Shown here one piece after another: positions 12,906-53,700 of a stretch of DNA of 64,000 nucleotides; position 1 is the stretch's first letter, and each line of letters opens with the position of its first letter. The DNA comes from Blasia pusilla (taxonomy: Eukaryota), in NCBI GenBank assembly GCA_050084515.1, contig CM114271.1, positions 43,400,001 to 43,464,000 on the forward strand. The letters run 5' to 3'. The notes under the pieces were generated by a model, which was given only the letters and a program-made list of their open reading frames with translations, searched no databases and was not told the DNA's origin. The translations under genes were made by a program, and so were the position numbers.

Positions 12906-13424
12906 CAATGTGTAGTGTAGTCCTTTCTTTTCCATTTGATTGTTACAAGCAGGCTGCTTCTCATGTGCTGAGCTATTACTGTGTATCCTTTATTTTATAT
13001 GGCATTGTTTGATTGACTTGAAAAGCAGACTAATTTTATTATAGATAAGAGATCAGGTTTTAAAAAAAAAATTATCACAGTACTTGAACACACAACCCCC
13101 ATTTGACCTGCACAAGCACGACGCCAACTTATTTTTGGATGCCGTCAAGGCCATCTCATTATGGTCATCTCCATGAAATGTAAGTCTCCTAAATCTCAGG
13201 AGGTGGTTCATCGTGATCCATTGTAATGCTTTAGGATTAAGCTCCTATCACGCAATCGTTTGTTTCTTTTTTTGCTAGTTCCTTAGTGTGCAGGTACTGA
13301 GAAGGTATTTTATTCATTCCTCTTTAGGCCAGAAAAGAAAGAAGACACATTTTGATCTAGAAGTGAAATAAATCCCCGGATTGCTGGGTATGCTTGTCCC
13401 ATCATCACGTTCCTTTTCATGCAG

Positions 13425-16400: not shown

Positions 16401-17279
16401 TGACTTCCAGCCACCATACTCCCTCATCGTACTTCTATGTCAGATCCCGTCCTATCCTGCATCGTTTCGGGTGCTGCTGAGTAGCTCTTGCACCATAACG
16501 CCAGTGCAAGTAGTAGTTCTAGTCCAACGATGCATGTGCTCCATCCCTATAAGATTGAACGACCCAGTTACGCATCATATCATGTCTCGCAGGTGATTCG
16601 AAACAGTCTGGTCGTGGTTCAGAAGACCTTGAAAGGATTGATCGTCATGTCAGCAGAGATTGAGAAACTGACACAGAGTATATATTTGGGGGGGATGCCC
16701 GGCATGTGGGCCCCGTTCTCATACCCGACCATGAAACCACTTCTGAGCTATGCTGCCGATCTATTCGAGCGTTTGGCGATGCTTCGAGACTGGATGGCCA
16801 ACGGGGCGCCACCCAAGTTCTGGATCAGTGGGTTCTTCTTCACCCACGCATTTTTGACAGGAGTGCTGCAGAATTATGCTCGGAAGTACCACATTCCCAT
16901 CGAGACGGTGGGTTGGAATTTCAAGTGCATGCCCAAGGACGGAAACTATAACAACAAACCAGAGGACGGATGCTACGTCTACGGAATGTTCGTGGAAGGC
17001 GCACGATGGGACGAGAATGAGATGATGCTGGCCGAGTCTAAGCCCAAGGTCCTCTACTCGCCTGCTCCACTCATCTGGTTGCAGCCTTGTGTCATCGCAG
17101 ACAAGAAGAAATTCCCGTGCTACTCTTGCCCCTTATACCGGACTTCTGAGAGGCGGGGCGTGTTGGCCACAACCGGCCATTCCTCCAACTTCGTCATCAA
17201 CATCGACTTGCCCACCGACAAGCCCCAGGATCACTGGATTCGTCGTGGCGTAGCAATGCTGCTCACTCTCAGCGACTGA
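13425..17279 (+). CDS. axonemal dynein heavy chain, inner-arm (DNAH3/7/12-like) type; last six exons encoding AAA6, lid and C-terminal domain (682 aa); 5' exons lie outside the window
   Basis: Exons 13425-13760, 14003-14290, 14620-14862, 14982-15287, 15749-15937 and 16593-17279, all with GT-AG phase-0 introns and an open frame. Motifs: [81 protein letters not shown]. Confidence 0.95.
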
Positions 17280-19985: not shown

Positions 19986-21125
19986 TTACAATGGCGTCAG
20001 GTGGTTCAGTTCAGAGAAAGCTCGACCAGGTACTGAACTGCCACGCCAAATCTCCGCGCAACCCTTGCCTTGGCCAAAAGGAGAACCATCGTCACACTTG
20101 CCGAGAATTACGAGAGATTTTCCGTGAGGTCCACCAAATTCAAGGTTCGTTGTAGCTTTGATGGTTGTTAGTTTGATTCTGAGAAGTAGTTCCCCTCCTG
20201 GCGAAAACTTCACAACTTCGCCGCCACCATTTCTTGTGACATAAAGATTTCCCAGTATATCCGTGCGCATACCGTCGATGTCGATGGATTCGGTGTTGTC
20301 GAGCTGCTGGAAGTCGACAAAGAGCGTTTGATTCGAGACATCACCAGTGCTAGGATCGATTGCGTACTTCCAGATCTTGTTAGACACCACGGTGTTGTTT
20401 TTGTTGAAGGCTTCTGAGAGGTAGAGCGTCTTTTCGTCGGGGGAGACCTCGATACCATTTGTTCGGCCCAAGACTGCGAGCCTGTTGACCTTCACTGGTC
20501 CACTGATTTGGGATCCTAAGACGTTGAAGAAGGAAGAAGGCGCCTCGCACATCCAGAGTCCGCCATCTCCCACAACTGTATCTGAAGTGTAGTTCTGCCC
20601 TGACGCGTACACTCTTCCCGCTCTAGTGGCGATAGCCACATCATTTGTCTTCACCATTGTGGCATCGTGGCAAAACACACTGCTGGTCAATTTCCCCCAT
20701 GGTCCACTCTTCTGAATCTGAACAATTTGCTGGCCGTTCACGTCTGCTGCGAGAGCCCTGACCTGAATGCCGTGGCCGCTGTGCCTAGCGTGAAAAGCTG
20801 AAGTCGGGAGGAATCTGAGTCCATTGAATTGAGCTGCATCTGATCGGTCCCTGAAAAAGAGATCCTGATGAAGACGCCCGTATCGGCTCGCTACTCGCCC
20901 CAGTGCAGATACATTTCCATGGAAGTCCGTGGCATATATACTACCAAATTTGTCCACCGATGCGGCTTCAATGAAAGGCCCGTATACGGTCATGTTAATC
21001 GTCAGAAACGGTTTTGCGAATTCGACAGGAACCGCGTTTGCTTCGGCGAACGCACGGCTCCAAGTCGCCGCACAGATTTGAAAGAGAAGGAAGACCAGCA
21101 GATGCTCTTTCACCGTAGGGATCAT
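19986..21125 (-). CDS. secreted SMP-30/gluconolactonase/LRE-family six-bladed beta-propeller protein, 379 aa, single exon
   Basis: Intact ORF with a hydrophobic N-terminal signal peptide. Motifs IEAASVD, NGLRF, TNDVAI, NGIEVSPDEKTLYLSE, DGMRTDILGNLYV and TNLEFGGP are typical of the family. Confidence 0.9.
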   Translation of the reverse strand: MIPTVKEHLLVFLLFQICAATWSRAFAEANAVPVEFAKPFLTINMTVYGPFIEAASVDKFGSIYATDFHGNVSALGRVASRYGRLHQDLFFRDRSDAAQFNGLRFLPTSAFHARHSGHGIQVRALAADVNGQQIVQIQKSGPWGKLTSSVFCHDATMVKTNDVAIATRAGRVYASGQNYTSDTVVGDGGLWMCEAPSSFFNVLGSQISGPVKVNRLAVLGRTNGIEVSPDEKTLYLSEAFNKNNTVVSNKIWKYAIDPSTGDVSNQTLFVDFQQLDNTESIDIDGMRTDILGNLYVTRNGGGEVVKFSPGGELLLRIKLTTIKATTNLEFGGPHGKSLVILGKCDDGSPFGQGKGCAEIWRGSSVPGRAFSELNHLTPL

Positions 21126-24100
21126 GATTTTCGATCGTTGGTACGTTTGAACACAATTCAGATCAACCGAATCTTCGTAGTCTAATGGGAGCTAAGATCG
21201 TCACGCGAAGAAGAAGACGAAAGCAACTATGCACTCAGAGCGCCCCCGGCTACTGGCCGAGATGTGGACAGCCTGCTTCAGATCTAAGTTTTGAGATCCG
21301 CTGGTATGGAGTCGACTGGTTCTGATATCAGAAGCCTGAGCAGTCAGTCGACGCCTGCTCCGGGTCGCGAAAGCATGACTTGACCGATTCCTAGGTTGCT
21401 GGTCCACTTGAGAAAGATGAGCATGACATCCGCAGTAACTGAGATGGAGTGTTGACCTTCGCTCGGTAGTGCGTAGAACACTGGTGGGCTATCTAGCATC
21501 GCTATCTAGAGTACGTTGGCTGGGCACAAATATCCTTGAAAAGTAGAACTTAGTCTTCAGGCTGGGGCTGCTGGCAGTGCTGAACACTCAATTACCCAGT
21601 AGATTGCGCGTGAGACTCAGTAAACATGATATTAACTTTTAGTACTTTACTGTTGGACTCGTCGTTTCCACTCATGAGGAGCGGCTAGCCCGGGGGGAGG
21701 CACAGGATGACCCGGGGTAAACGCCTTGACGGGGGTGCTAAGTGCTGTGCTCTAGTTGGCTGTCCGATGAGCCAACGTGTTAGCGGATGGCCAGGCCTAC
21801 TTAAATCTGGAGCTTCCTCCGGTTGAAGTTTTATTCCAAGTGCGTCGTCTAACCGGCTCGTAGATCTTGAGGTTCTCATGGGAACTGTAGCGCAAGAGAG
21901 TTTCTATGACAATGTTCACCGAGGATCGCGATCTCTCGATCGTCGGGATTTCTTCTCGCCGCTCCTCAGCTGCGTAGAACTTCCAATTCGTATTCCTTGG
22001 TGTCCACCGAGGTACGACGTCGAAGCTGACACGTAAGTTCTGTGACGGTCACTCTTTCTCCGGAAGAGTGACGGTCGGACTCTTTACGGTTTACGGACCC
22101 TAAACCGTAAACGCCCCGGGTTATCGCTAATCGCAGATTCGCAATATCGCTCTGCGGCTCTCCTATCCTGTCGGTGGGTTCTCATTGCATCGCCCGGCCT
22201 CTCTATCGAGAGGCTAGTAATAATAAGATTCATACCGCCGCCTGTGGTGAGGGGAGCAAAGGCGAGGCGTAAGTTACAGTTGATATTATCAATATGTTCC
22301 TCTGCGCTGACTGCACTGCCTCTGCAGCAGCAGCGCAGAGGAATCTAAGCTCACAATCATCCTGCCGTGCACGTGTTGGAGTGTACATGTGCGTTGACGT
22401 AGCTACAATTTGTCTTTTCTCATCAGCCGGAGTTCTCGGAGTGGGGCGACTGAGTTGATGGTGGATGTAGCAGCCTTTCTTATCGAAAACAACTGTATAA
22501 CACTCGGAGTCTAGCATTCCGAAGAATCTAGGTCGAGAAAAGTATTCTAGGGAGGTCGAGACTCGAGACCTTGCTTTCACCCCTCTCTAACACATCGGAG
22601 TCGGCCTGCAAGCTAGCGAGCACGACTGATGCGACTCTACGAAAAACAAATCATCCGTCTCACAACAAGATCTGAAAGCTTCTTTTTTGATCCTCGGCGT
22701 TTTTCTCCCGGAGAGAAACGTGCTGGCAACCCTATGCCAACCAATTGCTCTTGACACTGTTGGAGTCTCTGACTCGGTGGCTTTCTCGCTCGCCATACCC
22801 CCAGCCTTAGTTGCAGTCGGACCCTAAAAACAGTCGCGTGCCGGCCACAGGATCGGCCCCTCGGCGCCGCAACAGAATCCAAGTGCAATACAACTATTTT
22901 TTTTGTTTCGCTAACGGAGCCATTTCCATAGCTGCTCACTTGGTCCGTAGATGGAACCGCTGCATGTCCCGACGTTCACGTAGGGCATGCCAACCACTCT
23001 GGCTTGGAATCGGAAGATGTCACTTTAAGCTTCTGATTACTTGGCATCACTGATTCGAGCCAGATCTGTTCGAAAGCCTCTTCTGATCGGATCTGAAAGA
23101 CAATGAACATCAATGAAAACGCTTGATGAAAACCCATCAGAGATACAAAAGAGGGGGCATAGAGAGCCAAAAACCCGCAGGCCAAATTGCAGGAGTAGTA
23201 GCGAGACACAGTGCCAAATTTGAGCCACAATTACACCACACCTCCGTGGTGGGTCAGCAGAGCGTAAGCAGATTTCGTTCGACGATGGTTCAGATGGTTC
23301 GCCCTTCCTGCTATCGAGGTCATTTGCTAATCAGAGGACATAAGTAATCATATTGTCAGGAGGAGGAGATAAATTTGAACTCTGAGAAGAATACATCTAT
23401 TCATTCATTCTATGTCACATTGTCACATCAAAGAAAACGAAAAAAGGCCTCTTAGACTAGACCAACCGTAAGATGCTTTCTGAGCGTCTTATCTCTAAAT
23501 TAGGAAAATACCCGAAAGCAAATCTCTTAGCGAAACTTATCGTGATTCCCAACTTTCTTCTTGATCTACGTCAACTTTCTACAAAACCGCCATCTTTTCG
23601 GCCTCTGACTGCTGGTTCTCCTGGGAACTCATCGGGAAATAAGGTTACCCAATTTCTACTTCAATAATTGTGTCGAAGACTGGAAACCACAATGCTAGAA
23701 GAATACGAGCTTCTCAGCGTGGTCAACTTTTCAGCGTCCGCGTCACCGGGAAAACTGCCCACGATCGGCGTCATGAGTCTTCATCGAAATTAGATGAAGG
23801 TTTACTTTCCCGATCTGATTCCCGAATGTTAGCCACAGCATAAAGTGATTATTTACGCCCCAAATAAATTTCCCAAATACATGTCTTTCTTTTGCCCTTG
23901 GCCCACATGCACCTTTTCCAAGCAAATTGTCCGTGAGCTATACTCCAAGAAGAAAAGGCGAAGATGCACTTCGATAAAAACGAGTGATGGAAAACCCATC
24001 GGAAGTACAAAAGAGGGGACTCAAAGAGTCAAAACCTGAAGGCCACAACCCTAACCACGAAACTCACCAACAGCAGAGATAATATCAGCAACAACAAGAG

Positions 24101-24238
24101 AGCTATGACTACTACTAAGTGGGCCTCTAGCGCCGGCGTCTCCCAAGAAGCGAGCACATCATAAGATCCACGTGGACACGTGCATTTTATTATATTGATA
24201 ATAAAGTGGATATTTATATAACGCAGACTAGTGGAGTC

Positions 24239-24324
24239 GAGGTAGTTGCTTAAGAGGCCCCCTACCCATTTATTACCCCTATAGCGGCCCCCTACAAACT
24301 ATCATTTCTAAATAGGCCTCTTTA
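24239..24324 (+). repeat. MULE left TIR (86 bp)
   Basis: Near-perfect reverse complement of 38201-38286. Confidence 0.95.
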
Positions 24325-24764
24325 GGATGCCACGTAGGTTGCTGTACAGGTAAGTCCTAAGTGTTCTTGTAATTTGGTGTTGTATGAAGCTGTTTGCAAG
24401 TTATGGGAGCACACCGTAGTCCACGCCTCATGACGCAGTTGAGAAATGTGGTATACTGAGCCAGATTCACCACATGTAAATGCAGAGATCATCTCCTCTC
24501 AGAGTTTTTCCTGAATATTCTCATTATGCACTGTTCATCTGCCTGCTTATTCGAGAATGGATGGTAGAGAACCGTTTAGAGATCTCTTAGAGATATCGCC
24601 CACCAATTTTGCTTCAGTGTTACACCGACACTTCTTCCCCGTGGATGAGAAGGGTATATTCTCCGGTGAAGAGGAGGAACACAGGAAGTGCGTTGCATAT
24701 GGTCGGCGGCCATTCCACTCAGATTCTCAAGCCGCCTTTGAACAGTGGAAAGCAAACACATTCG

Positions 24765-25245
24765 AGAAAGAGCCTAATCTGGAAGGATTTAGCTTGGAAG
24801 AAGGTAAGGATTATTGACTACCACTCGCTCTCTCTCCTCCGTCTACTATCAAGCACTGATGAAGTAGGAGAATGTCTCTAAAGATTTTAGCTGCCAAGGC
24901 GGAAATCTCGGCTGCTATTTTTCACTCAGAGTCATTGAGAAGGAGCCTAATGTGGAAGGATATAGCTTGGAAGAAGGTAAGGATTATTGACTACCACTCG
25001 CTCTCTCTCCTCCGTCTACTATCAAGCATTGATGAAGTAGGAGAATGTCTCTAAAGATTTTAGTCGCCAAGGCGGAAATCCCGACTGCTATTTTTCACTC
25101 AGAGTCATTGAGAAGGAGCCTAATTTGGAGGGATACAACTTGGCAGAAGGTAAGGATTATTGACTAGCACTCGCTCTCTCCTCCGGCTACTACCAAGCAC
25201 TGATGAATGAGGAGAATGTCTTAGCAAATTTTAGCCGCCAAGGCA
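24765..25245 (+). repeat. 173-bp tandem repeat x ~3 (exon end + intron unit) in the transposase 5' region
   Basis: GAGCCTAAT..GAAG|GTAAGG recurs at about 24770, 24943 and 25116. Confidence 0.85.
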
Positions 25246-27069
25246 AAAATGTTGGCTATTTGCAATCATTGACTACTATCTTCGATGTTCTGCAGTCCAG
25301 AGACAGGCCAAACGGATCCGTTTGAATGAAGTCTTCACAAATTTTGATGACTTCGATTTCGCATTGGATTGTTGGTGCTCCTTGAATTCTAGAGCAAAGA
25401 GTTGCCCACGGATGAAGAAATGGTATCGACTTCGCACTTGTAGATATGGTGCTAACATAAAAGGGAAAGGTCCGCCAGAAGAAATGGAGCCAAAGTCCTG
25501 CTCTAGCAAGGAACCTTTTCAAGAAGATGTTGAGAATCCCGTTGGTGAGGAATGGATGAGACACCTGAAATTTCAAGTGGATACCCCTTTAAGAGACATT
25601 ACTGGTCCCATAGACGCAAGGTTTAACAAGCAACGGGGTGTACTTGGTAGTCTTGAATTGGATTGGGCAGAAGGAAATAGCCGCCAACGTTTACCTTCAA
25701 CGTGTGGTGTAACCGCTGGAGCCCCCTTGGCGGCTACGAACATGTTTTTGGTTGGAGTTTCCACATGGCCTCCTAAAGATACGACAAACATGGAGGCCCA
25801 CTTTACAATAACCCCTACAAAGCAGGGTGAACCGAATATGCCAAATGTGACTACAGGTTTATTGTCCCCTTTGGCTCATAGTTGCTCAGCGGCTATTAGC
25901 AATATTGACCAGGCTAGTGGGGAGTCGATGTTAAATGTATGGATGGAAAGGGAAAGCATTCACGACCCCAGAATTCACAAACAATCGGCTGGGATGGGAC
26001 CAGCATGACGTCCACAACATAGTAAGCGACCTAACCAACCCGTTTTCAAAAATACATTCACTGAAGTAGTAGCACCCTTGATAGAGCCCATGCAGAGAAG
26101 AAGAAAGCGCGGTGAAACATCAAACGATAAAACAACACTTGGGATTGCTCGGAATGGTGTATGTGGAGAGTTTTGAGGTACATGTGTGTGCCAAATGACA
26201 AGGTGCGTCCCTCTTGTTAATGGAGAGTAAGATGCCAACGACATAAGAATGGTGGCGGTTACCAGATAACTGTATGCAACCTGAAGCACACATGCCCGGG
26301 ACACATTCACATATGGAGAGGTCCTACTCATAAAGCAAAGTGGTTGGCAATGGTTATGGCAGATAGGGTTGAGAATCAACCCAACATTCCTGTGGGCAGA
26401 CTTGTAAATGTCCTAGCCCAAAATTATAAAAACAAACAACATACTTTCCCGCATGGAGATGCAAGGAAATATGTCGAGATTGGATGAATGGCGGCGAACG
26501 GGCAAGTTTCCACATGATCCCTGCTTTCATTGACTGTGTGAAGGAAGCTGATCCTCTTGCAACGGCTGCATGGGATGTTTGGGACTCACAATCCGCGAGG
26601 TTCAAACGATTATTTATCTGTCCTTCAGCTATGAAATCCGTTATACCTTTTGTGCAGAAGGTAATCGGGTTGGATGCATGTCATACAAAGAACAAGAAAT
26701 ATCCACTCCAGATTTTCATAGCATCAATGTTGGATGGAAACTCGAACACAATAATTGTAACCTATGGTATTTGCCCTCGTGAAAGCAATGAGGATTGGGA
26801 ATGGTTTTGTTCATATTTGAAGAAGGCTATTCCTACCTTCGACGATCCAAATATAGTAATCGTGTCAGATAGGCAGAAGGGTCTATTACATGCTATTCAT
26901 GCATTTTTCCCATATAATATTCATAGCATGTGTGGCCAACACCTGAGAGCAAATGTGAAGTCACGTTATGGAAAATTGGCGGAGGAGTATTTCATCTGCT
27001 GCCTTTATGCAAGGACAAGGCAAAAGTAAGTATCCCCAGGCAAAAGCTTGGCAATATCATCCCCCCTTT

Positions 27070-27425
27070 CTAGCGACTATTTACAGTAGTTCTCATTCTT
27101 AGCATTGAATGTGTAAGTCGTTGGAGCATTCCCTTGGCATCTCAATTACCTTTTCTGGCGGTTATTTACAGTAAGTTTTGTGTTGGCGCCTAATTTGTAA
27201 GTCGGCGGAAGCATCAGTAGGCATATTTTCCTTTAAGTGACGATTATTTTTTACCTTTGTTGGCGGCTATTTACAGTAGGTTCTCTGTTGGCGCTTAATT
27301 TTTTAGTTGGCGGAACCATCAGTTGGGATATTTTCCTTTAAGCGACAATTTTTTTTTACCTTCCTTGGAGGCTATGTACTGTAGGTTCTCTGTTGGCGCT
27401 TAACTTGTAAGTCGGCGGCTATTTT
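27070..27425. repeat. diverged ~105-bp tandem repeat x ~4 in the transposase intron
   Basis: GGCGGYTATTTACAGTA..GTTGGCGC.TAA..TGTAAGTCGGCGG-like units at about 27072, 27157, 27262 and 27367. Confidence 0.7.
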
Positions 27426-30400
27426 CCCCACATATTAAGCAATTTCATACGGATGTACAGGTTTGAATTTTGGCTGTCAGAGATGGAGAGACATCATATT
27501 CAGAAGATAAGCGATGCAGCAGCTTATATTCGAGAAATCGAACCCGAAAAGTTTGCAAGGTGTGCATTTCCATTGCCTCGATATGACAAAGTAACTTCGA
27601 ATTTGGTGGAGGTTATAAATTCTGCGATCAAGCCTATCAGAGAAAGTCCTCCTTTGGGCATTGCACGTGGCATTTGGAATTATATGATGAAGACTTATGC
27701 TGAGAGGAAGTTAGAAGCGTTCCATCCTGACAAATTCAAGACAAAATTGACGACATATGCCTTACTTCGATATCAGTAGAATGAGAATACTTGTCAAGCG
27801 TTCCAAGTCATCGCCTGTGATGAAGCAAATGCGTTGGTTGTGTCAAGAACCTCAAGGCACGAATTTCATGTTCAATTGAGTCCCAAGTGCCAATGCTCTT
27901 GCCTTGAATTTCAAGACACACGTTGGCCTTGCACTCATGTTATGGCGTGGGATGTGTTCACTGGAATGGATTCAGAGCAACTGTTTGATCCAACGTGGAC
28001 AAACAATTTTATCCATCGTGTTTATACAAGTAGCATACCAGTTGTGAAATGTGATGATCTATTACCATCTTGGGAGTGTCGGCCCCCTCCTCCTGTAGTT
28101 TGACGCGGACGACATCGTGTTTTGCGCATTCCAAGCAATGGCCGTGCCAGGTCTCAACGTGATGAGCAGGTTGAGGAGCTTTCTTATCCAATCCACGACT
28201 ACCCAGCAAGTGGAGAGATATACATCAAAGGAGACCATGAACCCACATTACCGAGAAGAGGGCCATACTTATGTGTGGGGGGCCGAAGGTGCACACATAG
28301 TTTAGGAGAAGGCCACAACTGAAAGACGTGTGAAGTTCTGAAAGCAGACATAGCTGCTGGTAGACCAATATGCACCATGAGTCAGACGCAAAGAACTCAC
28401 CGTGGGCTTGGGGCTAATACTACTCCTCTATCGGCGGATAATAGTGTTGTTAATCTTGAGGCTCTTGAGAGCCGTGGCCAAGATGTGAGTGCTCATCAGA
28501 TGTTGGATATATCAGCAACCAATCAACTCTTTGTGGATGTAACCACAACCCATGTGCATGAAGGTGGGGAGGTCGGGAGTAGTGGTGGTGGTTACACAGC
28601 TGAAAGTATTGCTACCCTCGATGCAATTGGTATTGGGCTTGTTAAGGGAGAAGATATTGGCTCCCAATCAGAAGAAGTGGAAGGGAACGAGAGGTGGGCA
28701 GGCAATTCACAAGTGTGCAATAATATTTTCCTTGGCAAGCAGAGAGACAATACTTCAACATTCCCAGGTGTGAAAGAAGTGTATGGCTTATCTGATGAAG
28801 ACATCGAAGAACCCATTGAAAACGTGCACGCTCTATCAATCCCAAGTTTAGACATGAATTGGCATGTAGATACAGATGATGATTGGAGTCCTTTGGAGGA
28901 AGCGTTGTTCATTTCTTTAGCGAAGGAAGCTGCCAAAGAATGTAAGGTGTAGTAGAAGTTTTAGGAGGGGCTGGACATTGTAAGAAGAAAATTTTGGAAT
29001 GAAATCCTTTGTGGTAACTCTTTCATCGCATTCCGTTGGCTAAATTTCACCCTTGGCGCCCATGTAGGCCCTTATTTTTCATGTCGGCGGCTATTCTCAT
29101 CGGCTGAAGAGACGTTGGAATTCCTTAAAGTAAGTGCCAATTGTCAAGAACCATGGTTCCAAACATTATGTGTGCGGTCTATTTTAATATGTACCAAGCA
29201 CAGGGCGTTTAGGGCCCGCATTGAATAGCCGCCGCACCTTCTATCGCACCCTAAGAAGCCGCAGGATAAGAAAGAGGGTATTGGAAATACATTAGTTTCT
29301 ATGGGGAGCTTTTCTTCACTCTTAGTTGCATGAAATAGCCGCACCTCGTAAGCGCAGTCAAATGGAGACACAGGATATAGCTACCAAACTTGAGCGGTGT
29401 GGCTAGTAGGCCCAAGGCAAGGCTAGACGCAGGAAAGGGACTCCCTCTCCGGAGGTTCTGAAGCCTGCCAAGTTAAAATCAAATTGTAGTGAGTTTTTTT
29501 CATTGGATACTTGGCTTAAAGAGCACTTCTTGGTATCGGCAAATAAAAGTGAGTGTTACATAAAGTCCTCGGCTTCTGAAAGCTTCTTCTTGGTACCGGC
29601 TCTTAAAAACTTCTTGGCATCGACTGTTAAAAACAACTTCTTGGTATCGGCGAATAAGCCCAATAGTGTTCTTTGTAGTAAGATTTATTTAACGGTGTTC
29701 AAAGTTGGAGGTAGTTGGGGATTTCTATTTTTTAATGGGTGGAGGTCGCTTTGAGTATGGGCGGGCTTGGTGAAGGAGTAAGCGCCCAACTTAACACTGA
29801 CATAGTGTGAATCTAGCTACTAGGGTATAGGCGAAGGAAGAAACTCCCGAGGTAGGGAGGGGGCGGTCAACTTAAATGGAATCGACAAGACTAGAGTGAG
29901 TAACGGCGAATAAGTTTAGTGACTCCGGCGGAAATATCATGACTGGATATAGTCTTGGAAGTCTCTGAAGAAATTCATCTTCCGTCGAGTAAGTAACTTC
30001 ACAATAGCTTTTCAAGTTAGAATTGGCTCCCCCTGGATAATTATTTTCTTTTTTAAGAACAGAAAGGCTACAAATAAGAATAAGCGTTAGGGTTCTTCCA
30101 AGAAGCAAGACAATAAGCGCCAATTTCATGCGCATGATTTTAGGCCCCGTAACTTCTTGGCGACTAAAATCTGTGTTACTCTGCGCTTATACTACTTCAA
30201 TAACTTTATGGCAAATAAAATCTGCATTTCTTTGCGCTTATACTAGCTCAAAGCTAACGTAGTCGCTTGTTTTTCTGAGAAGTATTTTAGAATTTTTCAA
30301 GTTGTCGCCTACCCATGAGCCGCTCCTAAGTTTAATGTGGGCACCTAAGTCCGAACGGGCGTCAAAGGAAGGCGCAGGACATCCACCTAGCTGTGGCTAA

Positions 30401-31045
30401 GTCTGAGTCTAAGTGGATGTCCAAGTTGTGGCGCTAGAGAAATCTGTCACGAATAGGGATGTAACATTGCGGCTAAGTCTAAGTGGGCGTCCAAGTTGTG
30501 GCGCTAGAGAACTCTGTCACGTTTGCAATTTCTGTGGAGTGGACATTAAGTTTAGGCGATTAGGGAAATGTGTGTTTCCAAGACTGTACTTCGTCGGAGC
30601 GATTTTTTAGGTTTTCCTTGGATACGGCTATTCACGTCAAGGAAATCTAGAGCTTGAATTTCCGAACAGATGCAGCTTGAAATCTCGTGCGGATTCAATG
30701 ACCTGCAGCGATCGCAGGTGCGAGTTAGAGTTTCCGCATTCGGGCCAGAATCAATTCAAGCTGACTGTCAAGTGGATGAGGTGCTTGCGATGAGTGTGTG
30801 CCTAATTTGAGGCCCGCTGAGAGCTGTGAAAGTCTTGACAGGTTTCTACGATTGTATCCGGTTTTATGGTACGCATGGAATCTCCGCCGAGTGTTAGAGA
30901 GATCTTGTGGGAACGATTGCCACCATTTCTTGCATGAATGGGAGTCTTAGACCATCGGAATGGAGATGTGGAACCCGAGAGGTAGCGGTGGCCATGACAC
31001 CTTGTCCCTCCAATCCCCAGATTTGAGGATGTAATCTTTAGGGTT

Positions 31046-31582
31046 TCAGTGCACCGCGGGAAGTTTGTGGTCGTCGTCCGGAAGCTCTGCAGCCAGAACG
31101 AAGGAGCAGAGAGGGAGCTAATCAAAAGACGCGCGGTATGGAGAAGTGAAACCCGAGTAGTATTGGCCGTGGCGAATGATCTTGCAAGTAGCAGACGTGA
31201 GAACATAATCGTGCATTCGATTTGGATCCTCATTCCCAGTTGTCCGTGGTAGTGCTCGGGGGTTGCAGTGCACCGCAATTGGATCTTGATTCCAGATTAT
31301 TAGTGCCAGTGCTTTGGATTTCAGTGCACCGCGGGAAGTTTATCGTTGTCTTCCGAAAGCTCTGCAGCCAGAACGAAGGAGCAGAGAGAGAGCTAATCGA
31401 AAGACGCGTGGTATGGAGAAGTGAAACCCAAGTAGTATCGGCCGTGGCGAATGATCCTGCAATCAGCACACGTGAGAACATAATTGTGAAACTTTTCGAT
31501 TTGGATCCTCATTCCAGTTGTCCGTGGTAGTGCTCAGGGGTTGCAGTGCACCGCGGGAAGTTTGTCTTTGTTGTCCGAAAGC
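31046..31582. repeat. internal MULE repeat, 2.3 copies of a ~220-275-bp unit
   Basis: CAGTGCACCGCGGGAAGTTT at about 31047, 31322 and 31544, with long shared downstream sequence. Confidence 0.85.
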
Positions 31583-31746
31583 TGGACCGCCTGAAAGAGA
31601 GAAATCATTTTGGAAATTTTCACGACGGAAGGTATGAAGTCTCCCTGGACGTTTCACGCGCTTGCTGCGTGCAAATTTTGCAAGTGATTGTTGGAAGCAT
31701 TGCTCGTTTAGAGAAGAACTACTGTTGTGCGAAATTAGGTGCTCGT

Positions 31747-32563
31747 TCAATCCCATTTAGATCCAACCTCCAAGAATTTAAGGAATTTGTTCTTCAATTC
31801 CTCTGCCTCCTTGCAATAGAGAGCTCTGAAAACAAATGCGGAGCGATGAATGATCGGGAAATCTTGGAAATGGTCTACATTGTTACTTGAACTTACCATG
31901 TCTAATCCGTTCATGGAGTAATTCACTAGATCACAGAGGGAAGAGGCAGCTGCTTCAAACCCAACAACGTGGCATGTCGAGTTTGGTACAGGCATTTCAA
32001 AGACTAAAGGAGGAAGAAAGACCAAGATCCACATTCTGATAGTAACTCGAGCTCCTACTCCAATGAATCTATATGTTCTCAAAATGACTTAAGTACATCA
32101 ATATCATAAGAACTGAAGAAGGATTTGCCAGAGTGAGTCTCTCCTGTTTGTGAATCTGAGAGAGGGTCATGCCTGACTCGAGCTATAAGCCAGCTAGTAG
32201 CAGATGTGTCTGTACTGGATGCATAAACAGTGGCACTTTTTCTTCTCCAGCCTTTGCAGGTGTCAACTCTTCCCACAAGAAATCTGATCAGTGCCATCTG
32301 TTCTATTCCTGGTACCATGTAGTACAATCACAACAGCTACAAGAGAAAACACACGTTTTCTGCAATTTCTGGCAGCGGGGTTCATTGTGAAGAAATTTGT
32401 CCCAAAACCTGTACCTGGTGGCCAAGAATATCAACTTGATTATGGCAGGCAATGTCAGGAGCTTTGAGATGACCTCTAATCTTGACCTCTTAATTCTTAT
32501 GAAATCTACACACCGTGTTTGGACGTTGCTATATCGTAAACGACCGAATGTAACTAAATCCAT
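31747..32563 (-). pseudogene. MULE accessory gene of unknown function, frameshifted
   Basis: Three abutting minus-strand ORFs (32303-32563, 32079-32327, 31747-32082). Restoring one T at ~32082 gives ..VLKSFLRTYRFIG... No recognised domain. Confidence 0.4.
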
Positions 32564-32748
32564 AAGCCTCCCAACACACTCATTAACACTCCTCTCACCC
32601 CCTTCACAGTCTGCCTCTATATAGCCACCCAGTGTATATAGCCGCCAACTCTATATAGCCGCCGCGTTTCAGTGAGTCATTGTCTGTTGCATATGTAGGT
32701 GTCATTCTGAAAGTATGTTGTTTGAATATGCACCCAGGAAAAGAAACC

Positions 32749-35700
32749 ATGGCAGAAGAATACCCGCTGTAGGAAGTCCATTACAGAACTGATTTTGCAA
32801 GAATTGAGCAGAATGTAGATGAGGATAAGCTTTTGCTGATGGGAATTCAAGGTATCTGGAATGTATCGTGGGTTGAATGTGACAAGGATATGGTAGTGTA
32901 TTTCTTAAGCATCTTCAACCCAATTACATCAGAGGGATTGGTTAGAAAAAGATATCCAGAAAATTTACACGAGTATGCGTTAGTACTGTCCCCCGAATTG
33001 ATCGCGAAGGCATTCCAATTTTTAAATATTGGCACATATTTGTCAATGGAGAGACAACACACCGAACAAGAGGAGCCAACCCTCTATCAGAAATATCTCA
33101 CAAAAATTGAGAAGACAAGTCATGGGTACAAACACTGCTATCTTGTACCCCAATCCTTTCGTCTTATTTTGACACAGTTAAATCGATGCTTTCACATGAA
33201 AGCCAATCCGGAGTGTGTGCCTGCTAGCATGCTTTCCATGGCATGTCGGGCTTGGGAGGGAAAATCGACTGATTGGGCAACATATGTCTATCGAAAACTT
33301 ATGCTCGACATAAAGGCAGTTCTCCGACCAAGAGTGAAGAAGGAGAAATAGAGAGAGAGCGCAGTGGGAGTGATTTTGACAATTATTTTCAACCATGGAG
33401 ATTTACCTCCGGACTCTGTCACTGTTGCCATGGCTACACTTGTCTCTCCTCCGCTTCAGATTCAAGAGGATGCGGCTGATGGCACCCTTGCTGAATCATC
33501 CCAACATATTGATGGAGGAAAGGTGGTTGGAAGGCCCCGGATAGCTGCGGAAAACAAAGTTGGAAAAGCTAAAGCTAAACAGAAAGCAACTGATGACGAC
33601 AAGAGTGGCCGCCTCTTAATTAAATTGAAGATACCAGAAAGAAGAAGAAGGCCAAAAACAATACCAGAGCCTGATGAAGAAGATAAATCACAAGGTAATT
33701 CCGACTTTGTGGCTCCTCCCCGAAAAGCAAGGAGAAAGATAAAAGCGCACAAAGACGATGATGCGTCGGCGAATGCTGAAAGTCCCTTTGTAAGTTTTTC
33801 CCACCAAAAAATTTTGCATTTAGTTTTTCAGCTTTAGTTTGGTTTTTTTCTTTAGTAATATGACATATGTATTCGGCTTTGCTTGTCTGCATAGGTTTCT
33901 GCAGTTGCGGCGAGTACTAAATTGCCGGAGGTAACCAAAGTGGGCAAGAAAAATCAACCCATTGTAACGTTCTTAACGCTTGCAAATGCTAAAAGTGAAG
34001 GTTGTTAAACATGGCGGTTAATAGATGCTATAGTCTCACAATTCTTTGTTGTGGTTCTGGATGTTATGTGGGACTCCTCCCCCTGTTTGTGTGTATGAAC
34101 CGCGCTCGGTTGTTCAAACATGTATTGGGATTTAGACGGATATTTTCCCTTCGATGTTGAAACCTTTCTTGTGCTTGTGGCGGATATTTTCATTTTCCTT
34201 CCACTTCTTTTCTGCAGGTAGTTGGTTCCCCTTGCTATTGAGACATTGGTTCTGGTTGTGCTTGCGGTTGTGGCGGATGTTTTCCATTTCATATGACTTC
34301 TTGTCTGGAAGTTGATGATTCCTCGACGGTTATACCATATGTACTTTATGTCGGCGGATAAATCCAATCCTGATTTGTACCTTGATGCTGGTTTGAGGTT
34401 AAATTCTTCTTGCTTCTTAATCTCTTATGTACGTTTGAGTTAATTCATATTCAACCTATGTGTAGGACAAAGGAGGACCTTCAAGGCCACGACACGCCAA
34501 ATTGGCTATTAGCCGCCTTGGAATTGCCACTTCGGAAGTGAAGGTGGAACCTTCTGAGCATGTAGAAATCGGTGTGCATCTAAGCGGGCTTTCTTTGAAG
34601 GCAGGGAAGGGATTTGAAAATGAAGCTGCTTCAGGATATGCTAGCGACATAGACAAGAGTCTATCTGGTGAGGATCATTTGGATGGGGGAAAGGAGATTG
34701 GCACACCTGGAGCTGCAATCCATCATGTGCTTCATCAAGTAAGAGAGGAGTTGAAGGCTGATGGGCAGAAAGATTCGGCTGGGAAAAATGGCATACACTT
34801 GGATGGCAATGAGGCACGTGGTGGCTTGTTGAAAGGAGTAAGTTCGTCCAAATCATCACCGTGTGTTCCGCTTTCACCTACACTAGACGATGGTGTTCAA
34901 AGTGGATCCAAGCATGATGTGGACAATTTGGAATGGCCTTCACAAGCGTTTGCAAGTCTTGGGATCTCAGAGTGGAATACACAAAGGTTGGCATGTTCAC
35001 AAGGTTGGGAAATTCCGTTAGAGTCAGATTGGGGAAATAGGGGAGGCTCCCTACATGGGAGAGCTTCAGGTGTGGAGCCACCGGAGAAAGAAAATGCCCC
35101 ATAACCAGAGGCAAGAAAGAAGGTGGCCCCAGCTCCAGAAGTAGAGGTACCAAGCAAACCATCGGTGGAAGTGGCCATGCTACCAATTGCCACCAAGTTC
35201 TCCGTGGACCGAGACTCCCAAAAAATTGAGAGCCACATTATTAATCGAGGTTCTCAAACGACAGATCAGATAACTATGGAAAGGGATGTCCAAACACTTG
35301 ATGTCGTGCTCATCACCCGAGGTTCTCAAACGAGCGAAATGCAATTGGTGACAAGATTGTGCCAAACCGAAATTGTGTTTACTATGGAGCAGCAGATATA
35401 GACAGATCCTTGCAAAGAACCAATACTGATCAGCCGAGATTGTCAATATGAGGTAGTACACGTGGTTAATCGCCATTGCCAAACTAATTTCAACCCTTCT
35501 GTGCAAAATGCATCTGCACAAACTGAAGGGCGTTACTTCTCCTACTATGACCAGCATGGGGAGATTCCTAAACGCAGGGCGCCCGTTCTAAGTGAAGAGT
35601 ACTGGTATTCCGGTGATGGCTTTGAACAAAATCCTGGATATGAATTTAGGTTGATTAGCTTGCGGACAAAGGCGGATTGTCAAGTACCTGGTGAGAAGGA

Positions 35701-36744
35701 GTTCCGCGAGAATCACCCTTGCAACGAACATTCATCAGGAGCGGATGAAGCGGGGAATGTTCCATCTGAGAAGCTACAGAGCATTGCAAGTGGAGGAGAC
35801 GACCCTAGTGCTCTACAAGGAAATGAGATGTCTGCTACAGTTCAATCCAAAGAAGAGCAAAAATTATCATCAAGAGAACAAATGGTAGTGGTTCCTTTAC
35901 TTACACTCCCAAACACGTTAATGCAAAGGCTCTTTAATTATTATCATAAAAGATAATTCAGCTTTCTTACTGTTGCTTATTGTGGCTAACCGCCGAAACA
36001 AACATTTAACCGCCAAGATACTTTCAGAGTTAGCCCTCTATCCGTTTACGTGTCATTGGGAAAGTTTACATACACACAAAACCACTCACACAAAACCACT
36101 CGAATTGTGATGGAATTTATCAACCGCTATAGAGGAATAGGCAAAACTATAAACATTCTCCCTCTAGACTGGCCTTAACCAAATGGAATTCTATGTATAT
36201 CCGCCGTGACAATTCTATCTCTCCAAAACTTTGTTATGTCTCATTTCAATTCCCATCCCATTAGCCACAATAAGATATTGTGGCGTCTAAATATTTTTAC
36301 TCATGTTGGTGTGTTGTTTCACAGGAAGAGAATGTGGACAGGACCGGGCCAGGGTCTCCTTTAGTAGACAGTGAATCAGTTTTTGATGAGAAAATTTTTG
36401 AGTTGTGTAGGTCTTATGTAGGGGTGAAGCCAGAGCACTCCAGGCATCTCCATTGCTGGGAGGACAAAATAGACCGAAAGGAGAAGTCAGCAGCCAGATT
36501 GGACAGGTACTTGGATGTGCTGGAAAAAAGACACATTGGCTTGATATGTGAGAGAGAGGAGCTATATGCTAACTTAGGCTTATCTGGATATGATTATGCA
36601 GCTTTATGGCTTGAAGCATTAGATAGAGTCACTGCCATGAAAGAGATTATAGTTCAAAATTCAAAATTCTTGAGTGAACTCCTGAGTAAGTTAGATATCT
36701 CCACAGATGAAGGAGTCATAGCTCGTCCCTCAAACAGGCTCTAA
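32749..36744 (+). pseudogene. MULE accessory multi-exon gene: PMD/plant-transposon-like N-terminal domain, long low-complexity middle, helical C-terminal exon
   Basis: ATG 32749 is in frame with ORFs 32833-33351 and 33364 across single TAG stops. Motif WEGKSTDWATYVYRKL. Plausible GT-AG introns near 33790, 33930-34465 and 35.9-36.3 kb. Final exon 36324-36744. Confidence 0.55.
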
Positions 36745-37169
36745 AGGAAGTAGACAGATTGCAAAAGCATGCTATGACTCCTCTAGAGTAGAAGCTCAAT
36801 GCAGATGTAGTAGTGACATTGTACACTCATGTGACTCCTTTGAATGAATAAATGTCCAAGTTTTGTTAGTATATGGCATATGAGTGTGGAACAAATATGA
36901 TATTCTTGCATCTCTAAATACCAAAAGTTTGGCATGTTTAAACTTTACAGAGTAGGTGTATATCTATTACCATATAGCCGCCATAACTTTTAGCCGCAAA
37001 AATTTTAACAGGGAAACTACGAAACCATTGTGCTTTATTACAGAAAGGCATGCACATTTACAATCACTAGGTATTAAGGGGACCCATTGGGCGTGGTTCA
37101 ACATCCGCTCCACCACGTAGTGCATCCTTTAAGCACATGATCAATGTACTAGCACCCACTTGGGAGGTA

Positions 37170-37934
37170 CTAACTTGAGTTTGAATCTTGAAGCTGGGTT
37201 TGAATGACGGCCATATTAGCCGCAATGTCTCCAAGATTCTTTTGCAAACCTTCAGCCTTTACTAAAATACTACTGAGGTGTGTAGTGAACTGCTGCTCAA
37301 CGCCATCAGTAAGTCGATGTTCTCTAAGGGAGGTGGTCACATCATCAACAGATCCAGCTCCTACTTTATCCGCCGGCTGAACATCTTGACTAACTTTCAC
37401 CACGAGTAGAAGCGACTTCCGGGTCGGGATGATCTTTCGAGTAGCAGTATGCACAATGCCTTCAAGAGCTCCTGCTCTATGCTCCAAAAGAAACATCCAG
37501 ATACCGCGCGCTTGCATTTGTACGTGAGAGATTTGGTTGTCGATACTCATCTTCTCAAAATCTACAGCAGACATACCCATAAAAGCATCTCCACCTTGCC
37601 AAACTATGAACTTTTGAACATTCTAAGGAATGTATTCAACCACATCATCATTTAAGCCCAAGAAAAACATCCACTTTGTCATTGATCCGTGCTCGCCACA
37701 TACGTGATCAATACAAGCCCGATTGCTGCTTCGTGGCTCGGTCGTCCTATTGCAGTTGCCCATTTCTCTACTTCCTCTAAAGACGCAAGCAGGGTAAGTA
37801 AAACGCCTTGCATCATTGGTTCCAACTTGCACAACAAAATCCTTCATCCATGTAGGAGGGAATGACATATTGGCTACCCTTTCTTGCTCCAATACACTCA
37901 ATTTCGACACGCCCATTCCTTGCCTTGGTAACAT
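37170..37934 (-). pseudogene. MULE accessory gene (~254 codons, one internal stop) with a degenerate C2H2-like Zn finger and C-terminal coiled coil, convergent with the transposase
   Basis: ORFs 37623-37934 and 37170-37580 are in the same frame, separated by one TAG. Motif FT(Y)PAC...CIDHVCGEH. It starts just inside the right TIR. Confidence 0.55.
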
Positions 37935-38200
37935 GCGTGAAAGCCTCTCTGATTCTTCAAAACCTCTCTGATTCTAACTACAATATTGCATCTGCACTTC
38001 TCTGTATTTAGCCGCCGATAGACACCCTTTGAAGTTTTCCCGCCTAAAATTACTATCCCGGCTAAACAAAATGCTTGCAACCACGATCCATAGTTCTTCC
38101 ATGCACACACGCAGCAGTGTACCTGGCGTGGTACCTAAGCGCTACGAGAATATAACAGGCCAAACCGGTGGAAACAATTTCAAATACCGGCACAAGCGGG

Positions 38201-38286
38201 TAAAGAGGCCTATTTAGAAATGATAGTTTGTAGGGGGCCGCTATAGGGGTAGTAAATGGGTAGAGGGCCTCTTAAGCAACTACCTC
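38201..38286 (-). repeat. MULE right TIR (86 bp)
   Basis: Reverse complement of 24239-24324. Confidence 0.95.
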
Positions 38287-38712
38287 TAGTGGAGACGTAG
38301 ATGGGTTGATGATATCATCTAATTAGTTGTGTATGACTAGTGCATATTTGTTTATTTCACATATCTAAATTAATATAATAGAATTAAAACTAACCAAGGA
38401 GATTCTTTTGTCACGGGTGATTTCACTTGTGCAAAGCACAAACATTATATTACTTTTATTGTAAGAAATCCAACAATGGGGGAGTCTTCTCCTTAAGTGA
38501 TTACTTTTTGGATTTTTGATCATACTAGTGACGTGTTGGTATATAGCAAGCACAGCCACATTTAACAAGAGTCCTATGTAAAAAAATTTCCATTAAAATG
38601 GGTCACCCATGAAAAAAATGAAATTTAAGTAGACAATATCATTTTTAGGATGGACAATGGAAAATTCTCCCATTCCATTAGTATATAGATATACTATTAT
38701 TTGTTTTATACA

Positions 38713-44406: not shown

Positions 44407-45181
44407 CTCTAATCTTCTGGAGCTTAGTGTATGCTGCCTTCAGCCTTCAGCCTTCTAAACCGAGCCACTTGCATTGAAACCTCACCTGATCTAAGTATTA
44501 GATACTGTTCAAATCTGTGTAACCTTCCGCAAGTGGTCACATATTGCCATGCTAGAAATGGAAGATTGAACAGACATGTTAGGAACACACTACTGGCGTT
44601 ACAACTACTTGAAGGATGTCCACATCCACTTGTACAATAATCTATCATAATGGCAAGAATTGAAAGTTGAAAAAAAGAAGACTTGTCGTCCATTAGTAGG
44701 GATAGCAGTTCTCAAGACTGAAAGAATCATGGGACACTTGACAGATGAATTGCTAAAACAAATAGGATGGAGCATACATCCCTTGAGCAGGTACTCCCAA
44801 TTCAGACTTTCAATCTGTATGACATTTTTATTGATCACTCCAGTGTGCCTCTCAAGGTTGACACTGACGTTAGATAGTGGAGTCTTCTGCCTGTGCAAGA
44901 GAGGGGAATGCAAGGAGTTCTTGCCACGGTTTCCCTTATCACTCCAGGAACTTGTCATAGCTTCCACATCGAACGCGTTCTCTTACTCTTGATCCATTAA
45001 GCCGTCCCTTCCTTCCTCCCCGCCCTCACGACTCGACGTAATTCTAGAAGCATCAGATGTTCCTCCTCACCTGATCCCAGCTAAGAGGGAGGCATTCAAG
45101 TCCAGCAGAAACTCTACCACGATGACAACCTTTTCTTGAAGCATCAAAGACACAATGTTCCCACAATTTTGATTTGATGTT

Positions 45182-45183
<2 letters not shown>

Positions 45184-45248
<65 letters not shown>
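45184..45248. repeat. (GT)n microsatellite, ~32 units
   Basis: Direct reading. Confidence 0.99.
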
Positions 45249-45250
<2 letters not shown>

Positions 45251-45323
45251 GAAGGTACCATATGAGAGGAGGGAGACACTCTCATATAGTGTGAGTGCGG
45301 ACCAAACAACGTGTTTGTGTGTG

Positions 45324-45326
<3 letters not shown>

Positions 45327-45408
<82 letters not shown>
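45327..45408. repeat. (GT)n microsatellite, ~41 units
   Basis: Direct reading. Confidence 0.99.
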
Positions 45409-45409
<1 letters not shown>

Positions 45410-48400: not shown

Positions 48401-50025
48401 AAAGACTATGTTCCCCTTTGTCTGGAACCCAAGGCAATCAGTTTTTACACTATCAAAATTTGCCTCTGTTATAGCAGCAGATTCACTGTTTGTAGGCATG
48501 TAAATACACCCAATATACATATCCCTCGAGTTGCACTCTGCTCAGACTTTGACCCATATGCTGTGTTCATACTCGAGCCCTATGCTGATGATCTCACACC
48601 TCTCCATCATGAAGTCTCTGATGAAGAACCCGACACCCTTCATACCTCTATTGTTGTCCGCTTGGGTGCTGCACATCTTTCCAAACCATGCATAGTGCGG
48701 TACATGGGGTATCTCCATTAACTTGGTTTCCCAAGTTTCCTGACCATCGCATATATGTATTTGATTTTTCAGCAAAACTTCAGCAACCTCCAGCTGCTTC
48801 ATTGCATGGGTCAGTCCACAAAAGTTCCAGGTACCCAAACGGAGACCTGTCACTAAGTGGGTTGGGGGTCGGCGGGCACGCTTTTGGCGTAGGTGTGGTT
48901 GCTTGCAACATGGAACCTCTTCATGAGCATGCTCGTCATTGCTGGTTCCTTGGAGAGCACTAAAGATATTAGGTGTGTAGATCACCAACAGTTTTGTGGA
49001 GATGGGCCTTTCCTTTAGCTCGAACCACCCTTAACTACCATAGCCCTCCAGTTGTAGGCACGTCTCAATTCTTGAGACACCTGGTTTTTATGGCAAGCCA
49101 AGTATTGGCCTCCTCTGCCCTTGATATATGGACGCCTTGAAGATAGGGTTTAGGGTCTTGAAGATAGGATACATTGACGGCCATTCATCATCCGAGTAAC
49201 TCCAGCAGTAGCCAGGAATTCAAAGCCCAAAGATGCGCACATGATCTTAAATGAGACGAAGTCTATTGTGGGACGTACACCAAAAATGATCATGTGGAAC
49301 CATTGTCTCCTCCTATAGACCAGATTGAACTCTCTACCCACATCCGAACTGCAGGGGGCCTTTGATCATCTCACATAAACATGCCGGTATTCCCCGCCCA
49401 GCTTGGGGATGCTGAGCTTTGGTATGTGCCTTTGATAGGTGAACTGATACTCCTCACAAGCTTGGGAGGATAGAGATATATTGGGCTCAAGGCCACTGAT
49501 TATATGTAGAGGTTTGGCAAACAACTGATTTAGGATCTGGGGAGAATGTTTAAGCTCCCAGACCGAGAGTCTAGACAGGGACTCGCTGTCCTATTTGTAC
49601 GGAGGGGTTGCCTCCAAGCGGCAGGGTGCCCAAAGAGAGCCCGCTTGTTACCCCCAAAGATCATCACTACCTACCAAGGTGAACAGTCGTGGCATTAAGC
49701 TGCAGAGGAGGGCCCGTGAATCCAGCTTCAAAAGAAGGAGAGGTCTCCATTTCTCCAACTAAGTCCACTAGACACTTTACTTGTGGCACAACTGCCACAA
49801 GTCACATGGATTACAGGACACACTAATCCACGCCTACCAACCAGGGGAACGACATCGCAAGCTCACTACAGGTTCCAACTACAGCAATAGGCAACTCGAT
49901 AGAGAGTATTGCTATATAGCTTGCACGCGGTTCACTCATTATAAGCTACCCAGGAGCAGTGCTTTAGAACATGTCGTCCCAACATACCAGGTCTGTCGAG
50001 ACTTGTAGTTTTGGGGTTTAAACCC

Positions 50026-53700
<3,675 letters not shown>

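Follow-up and report, generated by a model that had tools for sequence, protein, structure and literature searches.

We analysed a 64,000-nucleotide stretch of the Blasia pusilla genome (assembly GCA_050084515.1, contig CM114271.1, positions 43,400,001 to 43,464,000 of the forward strand; hereafter the window, whose own numbering is used throughout) and found that a single, defective 14,048-bp Mutator-like element (MULE) with terminal inverted repeats (TIRs), located at 24239–38286, carries 22 copies of the short word TA[G/A/T]CCGCC (TADCCGCC), which avoid its putative coding frames. Our preferred reading, to which we assign a probability of roughly 0.5, is that intact members of the family supply a sequence-specific DNA-binding protein for which the motif serves as a recognition site in cis. 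Through the array of about 22 copies in non-coding parts, this protein would find the copies of its family and, once bound, would determine their transcription or the state of their chromatin. Either an orphan accessory protein or the transposase could be the binder, and the logic would match that of VANC, TnpA, and the AtMu1c transposase, which act on VANDAL21, Spm, and AtMu1, respectively.

Motif enrichment and layout

TARCCGCC, the purine-containing form of the word, occurs 19 times in the window when both strands are counted, with 17 copies inside the element and two outside, and none of 100 dinucleotide-preserving shuffles of the window reached 19 (mean 0.80, maximum 4). The 17 internal positions listed in a preliminary description of this stretch are all exact; that description had seen a single outside copy, at 38761, to which a second at 53137 must be added. 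When all words of 6, 7 and 8 nt were ranked blindly, with the motif already proposed left unused, by how far their counts in the element exceeded those in the other 50 kb, the same word came back in overlapping forms: TAGCCGC (17 in the element vs. 2 outside), ATAGCCG (11 vs. 0), ATAGCCGC (10 vs. 0), TAGCCGCC (12 vs. 1), and AGCCGCC (13 vs. 1) were all among the top-ranked words. The copy at 38761, a TAACCGCC, lies 475 bp beyond the right TIR, and its flank has no blastn similarity to the element.

The CCGCC pentamer is found 40 times in the element and 34 times outside; TA[G/A/T] precedes 22 of the 40 element copies (TAG 12, TAA 5, TAT 5, TAC 0) and just 4 of the 34 outside. The base after TADCCGCC is a purine at 21 of the 22 element sites and the three bases 5′ of the TA are mostly A or T, giving a fuller word of 9–12 bp that consists of an A/T-rich lead, TA[G/A/T]CCGCC, and a purine. 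Counted as TADCCGCCR, this word is present 21 times in the element vs. 3 times outside, and Markov models of orders 0 to 4, fitted to the element itself, predict 0.3–2.9 copies. The five TATCCGCC variants reported earlier are real (28433, 34179, 34353, 36198, and 37367), with 34180 corrected to 34179. One-mismatch copies of TAGCCGCC number 19 in the element vs. ~4 predicted from the outside rate, and the ~15 above background may be weaker or decayed sites. The window’s other transposons (two Copia, a LINE, and a Gypsy fragment) are essentially motif-free.

Tandem repeats with units of 173, 105, and 17 bp carry the motif and have amplified it locally. Tandem duplication nevertheless fails to explain the motif count, because 14 of the 17 TARCCGCC copies (and 18 of the 21 TADCCGCCR) are left once the surplus units of all tandem repeats are masked. 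Neither did a dispersed repeat spread the sites, because blastn (word size 11) of the element against the window returned matches to tandem repeats and TIRs alone, with no dispersed similarity around the sites. Altered copies within the tandem repeats had been described as CpG-decayed; this holds for those at 24888 (TAGCTGCC) and 32622 (TAGCCACC), and those at 25061 (TAGTCGCC) and 27367 (TAGCCTCC) carry other, non-CpG substitutions.

Putative coding sequence, defined as the long frames, makes up 44.6% of the element and holds only 2 of the 17 TARCCGCC copies (binomial P = 0.0045) and 4 of the 22 TADCCGCC sites (P = 0.009), in line with the earlier remark that many copies sit in introns, tandem repeats, and intergenic or promoter stretches. 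Sites are located in introns, in tandem repeats, upstream of and between frames (genes 2, 3, 4, and 5), and 3′ of the transposase; three intact ones fall inside a homology-supported GT-AG intron together with the 105-bp tandem repeat. They spread from 25232 to 38009 (12.8 kb of the 14 kb), with a 3.4-kb site-free middle, and 10 of the 21 gaps between them are ≤200 bp (P = 0.015), while local density peaks at 3 sites per 300 bp and 4 per 500 bp. Their orientation is blocked: read from left to right, two plus sites are followed by seven minus, three plus, three minus, and seven plus, giving 5 runs for the 22 sites (permutation P = 0.0015), and the blocking persists after tandem copies are collapsed (19 sites, P = 0.0085). 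Neither TIR has the exact motif; each carries a different word, GGCCCCCTAC, twice (with none internal) and the motif variant TAGCGGCC once. The sites, and the repeats of the element’s interior, are listed here by coordinates and strand.

24759–25244, plus: 173-bp tandem repeat, 2.8 copies, with one motif position per unit (TAGCTGCC at 24888, TAGTCGCC at 25061, intact TAGCCGCC at 25232)
25232–25239, plus: TAGCCGCC, in the last 173-bp unit, element 5′ region, upstream of the first transposase frame
25678–25685, plus: TAGCCGCC, in a putative transposase intron placed by eye
25729–25736, minus: TAGCCGCC, in a putative transposase intron placed by eye
26254–26261, minus: TAACCGCC, the sole TARCCGCC within the transposase frame, 5′ of the homologue-aligned stretch
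27157–27164, minus: TAACCGCC, in the intron, unit 1 of the 105-bp repeat
27262–27269, minus: TAGCCGCC, in the intron, unit 2 of the 105-bp repeat
27414–27421, minus: TAGCCGCC, in the intron
28433–28440, minus: TATCCGCC, in the transposase tail frame
29086–29093, minus: TAGCCGCC, downstream of the transposase frame
29226–29233, plus: TAGCCGCC
31017–31600, plus: ~275-bp tandem repeat, 3 units, in the motif-free middle (29234–32638)
32615–32663, plus: 17-bp tandem repeat CTCTATATAGCCGCCAA, 2.9 copies, TATA-box-like, 110–158 bp upstream of gene 2
32639–32646, plus: TAGCCGCC
32656–32663, plus: TAGCCGCC
34013–34020, minus: TAACCGCC
34179–34186, minus: TATCCGCC
34353–34360, minus: TATCCGCC
34510–34517, plus: TAGCCGCC, at the 5′ edge of the gene 3 frame
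35987–35994, plus: TAACCGCC
36007–36014, plus: TAACCGCC
36198–36205, plus: TATCCGCC
36975–36982, plus: TAGCCGCC, with the variant TAGCCGCA 16 bp downstream
37367–37374, plus: TATCCGCC, inside the gene 5 frame on the opposite strand
38009–38016, plus: TAGCCGCC, 36 bp past the 5′ edge of gene 5

A second word, TAAGCGC, one base off TAACCGC, is also enriched, with 8 copies in the element (27291–30234 and 38136) vs. 1 outside; it lies in the 105-bp repeat, in a 51-bp tandem repeat, and in the stretch free of the main motif.

A defective Mutator-like element with accessory frames

The preliminary description of the region as a TIR-bearing MULE with extra genes is confirmed by all four features examined for such an element, namely a MULE domain, a SWIM finger, long TIRs, and a target site duplication (TSD), and by long frames beyond the transposase. 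The TIR arms (24239–24324 and 38201–38286) are 86 nt long and 98% complementary, and they are flanked by a 10-bp TSD, alike at 9 of its 10 bases (TAGTGGAGTC on the left, TAGTGGAGAC on the right). TSDs of MULEs measure ~8–11 bp. Pfam cut-offs are reached by just two of the element’s 146 stop-to-stop open reading frames (ORFs) of ≥45 aa: one matches the MULE domain PF10551 at 26430–27026 (E = 1.2e-12, 48.6 bits vs. a cut-off of 27.6), a match overlapped by the Transposase_mut and ZSWIM RNaseH-like models, and the other, after the catalytic domain, matches the SWIM finger PF04434 at 27780–28100 (E = 1.1e-6, 28.5 bits vs. a cut-off of 19.6). A word-indexed protein search, restricted to longer lengths, returned a single match among 109 candidates, a MULE-domain protein of the liverwort Riccia sorocarpa that is 48% identical to the transposase, and tblastn with this protein resolved two coding blocks separated by a 435-nt, in-phase GT-AG intron. 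Beyond this homology-supported part of the transposase, the gene models given below are reading frames only.

24229–24238, no strand: left TSD, TAGTGGAGTC, differing from the right copy at one base in 10
24239–24324, plus: left TIR, 86 nt, with GGCCCCCTAC twice and the one-mismatch motif variant TAGCGGCC once
26221–27025, plus: transposase exon or exons with the MULE domain; a frame change near 26430–26484 reflects a frameshift or a short intron
27026–27460, plus: homology-supported transposase intron, GT-AG and in phase, with the 105-bp tandem repeat (27146–27418, 2.6 copies)
27461–28949, plus: transposase 3′ exon with SWIM finger, CCHC-like knuckle, and acidic tail; stops at 27777, 28101, and 28320
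32773–33834, plus: gene 2, accessory frame of 354 codons; TAG at 33349, first Met at 32839, C-terminal half basic
34466–35953, plus: gene 3, accessory frame of 496 codons; stops at 35102 (TAA) and 35399 (TAG), no early Met
36274–36741, plus: gene 4, accessory frame of 156 codons, no early Met
37173–37973, minus: gene 5, accessory frame of 267 codons; one TAG at 37623–37625
38201–38286, minus: right TIR, 86 nt
38287–38296, no strand: right TSD, TAGTGGAGAC

This copy is not an intact autonomous element. Its transposase has the frame change near 26430–26484 and three in-frame stops in the 3′ exon (27777 TAG, 28101 TGA, and 28320 TGA), of which the second aligns to an Arg of the Riccia homologue and the third falls within the GHN-x-KTC knuckle. 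Across the transposase and genes 2, 3, and 5 there are seven in-frame stops, each one C-to-T step from CAG, CGA, or CAA. Since the stop codons are mixed and all lie a single C-to-T step away, they reflect decay rather than an odd code; an alternative genetic code was considered as their cause and ruled out, as TAG, TGA, and TAA occur together and one TGA sits at the Arg of the homologue.

The accessory frames once were genuine coding sequence. Stop-free stretches of ≥150 aa number 10 in the element, compared to a mean of 0.5 in 200 simulations, and the long frames contain 1–3 stops each vs. 13–36 in the other two frames of the same regions. Because it lacks an early Met, the gene 3 frame is probably an internal exon, and genes 3 and 4 may be exons of one larger gene. 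The gene 3 product holds a 12-residue peptide repeat, R..Q[T/Y], in which Arg and Gln are fixed, at residues 260, 272, 284, 296, 323, and 335 (window 35240–35500); identity at lag 12 is 19 vs. mostly 3–8 at other lags. DNA identity at a lag of 36 nt is low, ~32%. In the motif-free middle, at 30998–31887 on the plus strand, each of the three ~275-bp repeat units has an open frame for a similar peptide (…HRGKF.VV.RKLCSQNEGAERELI.RR.VWRSET…) with no Pfam match, and these frames may represent an accessory gene with a repeated exon.

Candidate binders and competing explanations

The element-wide, non-coding, repeat-amplified, and orientation-blocked layout is closest to the VANC case. In VANDAL21, arrays of YAGTATTAY that lie in non-coding sequence with tandem repeats are the binding sites of VANC21 (PMC5735166). 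Like VANDAL21, the Blasia element belongs to the Mutator superfamily, combines a transposase with extra genes, and holds a short word that is enriched in the element and rare elsewhere; a non-coding bias, carriage by tandem repeats, and same-orientation runs were all measured here, and the 12-residue repeats of gene 3 recall the tandem peptide motifs of VANC (PMC5735166). There are also differences: VANDALs have lacking or degenerate TIRs (PMC6446971), whereas those of the Blasia element are long and well preserved; no homologue of VANC, whose domains are DUF1985 and DUF287 (PMC5735166), is encoded in it; its motif contains a CpG; the copy is defective; and VANC is described as dicot-specific (PMC13547354), whereas the sole transposase relative found here comes from a liverwort. 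Assignment to the VANDAL/VANC family therefore fails on both defining features, the VANC homologue and the absent or degenerate TIRs, and agrees on the cis layout, and we advance a VANC-like mode of action as a hypothesis.

The preliminary description had gone further, proposing that one of the accessory genes could encode the TARCCGCC binder of a VANC-like anti-silencing system. The cis half of that proposal stands, in the form of a dense, element-specific array in non-coding sequence, and the trans half drew no support from our computations. Searches for DUF1985 and DUF287 found neither domain in the 146 ORFs (E ≤ 1) or in read-through frames (E ≤ 10), and Pfam scans at E ≤ 10 of the accessory frames, read through their stops with X, gave nothing above noise. 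No usable relatives were obtained for genes 2, 3, and 5 (gene 4 was scanned against Pfam and the Protein Data Bank (PDB) alone): genes 3 and 5 had no matches in a word-indexed protein search at near lengths, and genes 2–5 had no significant sequence match among PDB chains, a set in which the presence of the VANC21 structure 9LNK (cited in PMC13547354) is unconfirmed. For the N-terminal 192 aa of gene 2, phmmer against 1.84 billion representatives returned three matches, which we rejected as spurious, as they are translations of satellite-like tandem repeats that align over a short stretch only. Single-sequence AlphaFold2 models of the gene 2 N-terminus and of gene 5 had mean pLDDT values of 33.6 and 35.7 and were unusable as folds. 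Rfam and tRNA scans of the window were empty, and the matches listed by a literature search with the literal motif were method, cloning, or unrelated papers that gave no lead.

If a protein reads the motif, it may be encoded by an accessory gene or by the host, or it may be the transposase itself. The AtMu1c transposase alone binds cognate copies at their TIRs, lowers their methylation, and activates them (preprint 10.64898/2026.08.24.746577), and the transposase is therefore a legitimate candidate here as well, in another TIR-bearing MULE; by eye its N-terminus resembles a DNA-binding, MuDR-type zinc finger, a likeness for which Pfam gave no confirmation. The two elements differ in that AtMu1 has no accessory genes, compared to at least 3 extra frames here, and in that AtMu1c binding peaks at the TIRs, which in Blasia are without the exact motif and carry GGCCCCCTAC twice and TAGCGGCC. 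As the TIRs thus hold another word and only a one-mismatch version of the motif, we favour, by a small margin, an accessory protein as the binder rather than the transposase. Spm1 offers a further parallel: its TnpA binds clustered copies of CCVTCGCAAA at the termini, lowers methylation, and activates cognate copies, and this 10-bp word also contains a CpG and designates targets by motif density rather than by single sites (preprint 10.64898/2026.08.24.746577). Spm belongs to another superfamily, however, and the sites and effect of TnpA are terminal, whereas the Blasia sites extend from 25232 to 38009 in interior clusters; Pfam scans of the element’s ORFs and read-through frames gave no TnpA-like match.

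A more specific version of the accessory-protein scenario, which we regard as unlikely, would be that a TIR-bearing MULE family of a non-seed plant evolved its own anti-silencing or self-activation module apart from VANC, in which an orphan accessory protein of unrecognised fold reads TA[G/A/T]CCGCC-R arrays in introns, promoters, and tandem repeats and so keeps the copies transcribable. The best candidates for such a protein would be the product of gene 3, with its R..Q[T/Y] repeats, or that of gene 2, with its basic tail.

Several observations count against recognition by a family-encoded protein or at least lend it no help. The TIRs, the expected binding place of a transposase, lack the exact motif, and, beyond the SWIM finger of the transposase, Pfam recognised no DNA-binding domain in any ORF. 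The searches yielded no usable relative for genes 2, 3, and 5, and their conservation, and hence their function, is therefore unsupported. The CpG observed/expected ratio within 50–150 bp of non-coding sites is 0.57–0.62, compared to 0.68–0.71 elsewhere in the element’s non-coding sequence; as the ratio is not raised, the surroundings of the sites in this copy bear no mark of long-term hypomethylation. Thirteen of the sites contain AGCCGCC, the core of the GCC-box, which makes a host factor a real alternative binder. The lead as a whole rests on one defective copy of one element in one 64-kb window, and its trans-acting half is unproven.

The host-factor alternative holds that the sites belong to a host transcription factor, likeliest of the AP2/ERF GCC-box type, and were gathered so that the element’s genes answer a host signal such as stress. 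LTR retrotransposons likewise carry host enhancer motifs, and the sites at 25232, 32639, 32656, 36198, and 38009 lie within ~150 bp of the 5′ edges of frames. The AGCCGCC core (GCC-box, PMC9748296) has 13 copies in the element and a single one outside. Unlike a GCC-box, though, the motif has a nearly fixed TA upstream and a free third base, and 12 of the 16 GCCGCC hexamers in the element are TAGCCGCC. The first G of GCCGCC, which ERF binding requires, is replaced by A or T at 10 of the 22 sites, and these variants are themselves enriched (5 of each in the element vs. 1 and 2 outside). Moreover, the sites extend beyond promoter-like places into introns and 3′ regions, and the window’s two host genes have no copy nearby, although two genes make this a weak test. 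Pfam found no AP2 domain encoded in the element. On balance we consider a host factor possible but rather improbable.

Distinctly less probable, in our view, is that the motif has no binding function and is a relic of sequence history, such as decayed internal duplications, or a mutational or compositional quirk of the family. Tandem units do carry the word, and 3 of the 17 sites are lost on masking; the shared A/T-rich lead and following purine could trace a longer ancestral unit, and the CpG analysis showed no protection footprint. Such a history is hard to reconcile with 14 non-tandem copies where 0.3–2.9 are expected, and with the lack of dispersed similarity around the sites at a blastn word size of 11. 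The eight positions of the word are conserved and the flanks are not, as selection on the word would give, and both the avoidance of coding sequence and the orientation blocks are non-random. That the word acts in transcription or RNA processing, as a core promoter (in the TATATAGCCGCC form) or as a splicing or polyadenylation signal, is suggested by the 17-bp unit CTCTATATAGCCGCCAA upstream of gene 2, which resembles a TATA box joined to the motif, and by the ATA or AAA that precedes several sites, but is very improbable given that every site between 25729 and 29086 is a minus-strand one although the transposase unit, in or just downstream of which they lie, reads plus, that those at 34510–38009 are plus and those at 34013–34353 minus though genes 2–4 all read plus, and that most sites are far from frame boundaries.

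As a MULE with extra frames between its TIRs, the element also resembles Pack-MULEs, from which it differs in having kept its own transposase gene and in the absence of host-type protein similarity in the extra frames searched. No internal sequence derived from host genes, the feature of Pack-MULEs, was found against the 1.84 billion representatives for gene 2, in the word-indexed search for genes 3 and 5, or with Pfam for all frames.

If recognition by a family-encoded protein is correct, the same cis layout, in an element that has no VANC homologue and whose nearest transposase relative is from a liverwort, would point to convergent evolution; for sequence-directed chromatin control, it would provide candidate orphan binders and a target word that is new, short, and contains a CpG. 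Within the literature examined, experimental evidence of sequence-specific self-recognition by plant DNA transposons is limited to VANC, TnpA, and the AtMu1c transposase of Arabidopsis, with maize TnpA implicated earlier. What is apparently new here is a MULE with a motif array, without VANC, in a non-seed plant; no such system in bryophytes was found in the titles and abstracts of the matches listed, which are a thin basis for absence.

Surroundings of the element in the window

To the left of the element, two adjacent Copia-type sets of gag, integrase, and reverse transcriptase (RT) frames are arranged head to tail on the minus strand (2–8714). CpG is depleted to an extreme over this Copia region, with an observed/expected ratio of 0.15 (1–8000), compared to 0.65 in the MULE. 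The Copia frames are followed by the 3′ exons of an axonemal-type dynein heavy chain on the plus strand (13356–17276; AAA lid and C-terminal domains), and the interval of 16–24 kb, which includes the last dynein exons, has a near-normal CpG observed/expected ratio of 0.92. This dynein gene and the Riccia match of the transposase both agree with the non-seed plant proposed in the preliminary description. About 3 kb from where the MULE inserted, a single 401-codon frame with an SMP-30/gluconolactonase/LRE-like domain (19989–21191, minus strand) probably represents a host gene without introns.

To the right, LINE-type frames (endonuclease, RVT_1, and zf-RVT) lie in several pieces on the minus strand (45056–49030), followed on the same strand by a 400-codon and then a 143-codon frame with no Pfam match (51133–52764), ~370 bp past whose 5′ end lies the motif copy at 53137. 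A Gypsy-type fragment with integrase zinc-finger and RNase H similarity occupies 61773–63678, also on the minus strand. Words of the (CA)n type are common outside the element, where CACACACA occurs 77 times, compared to once inside.

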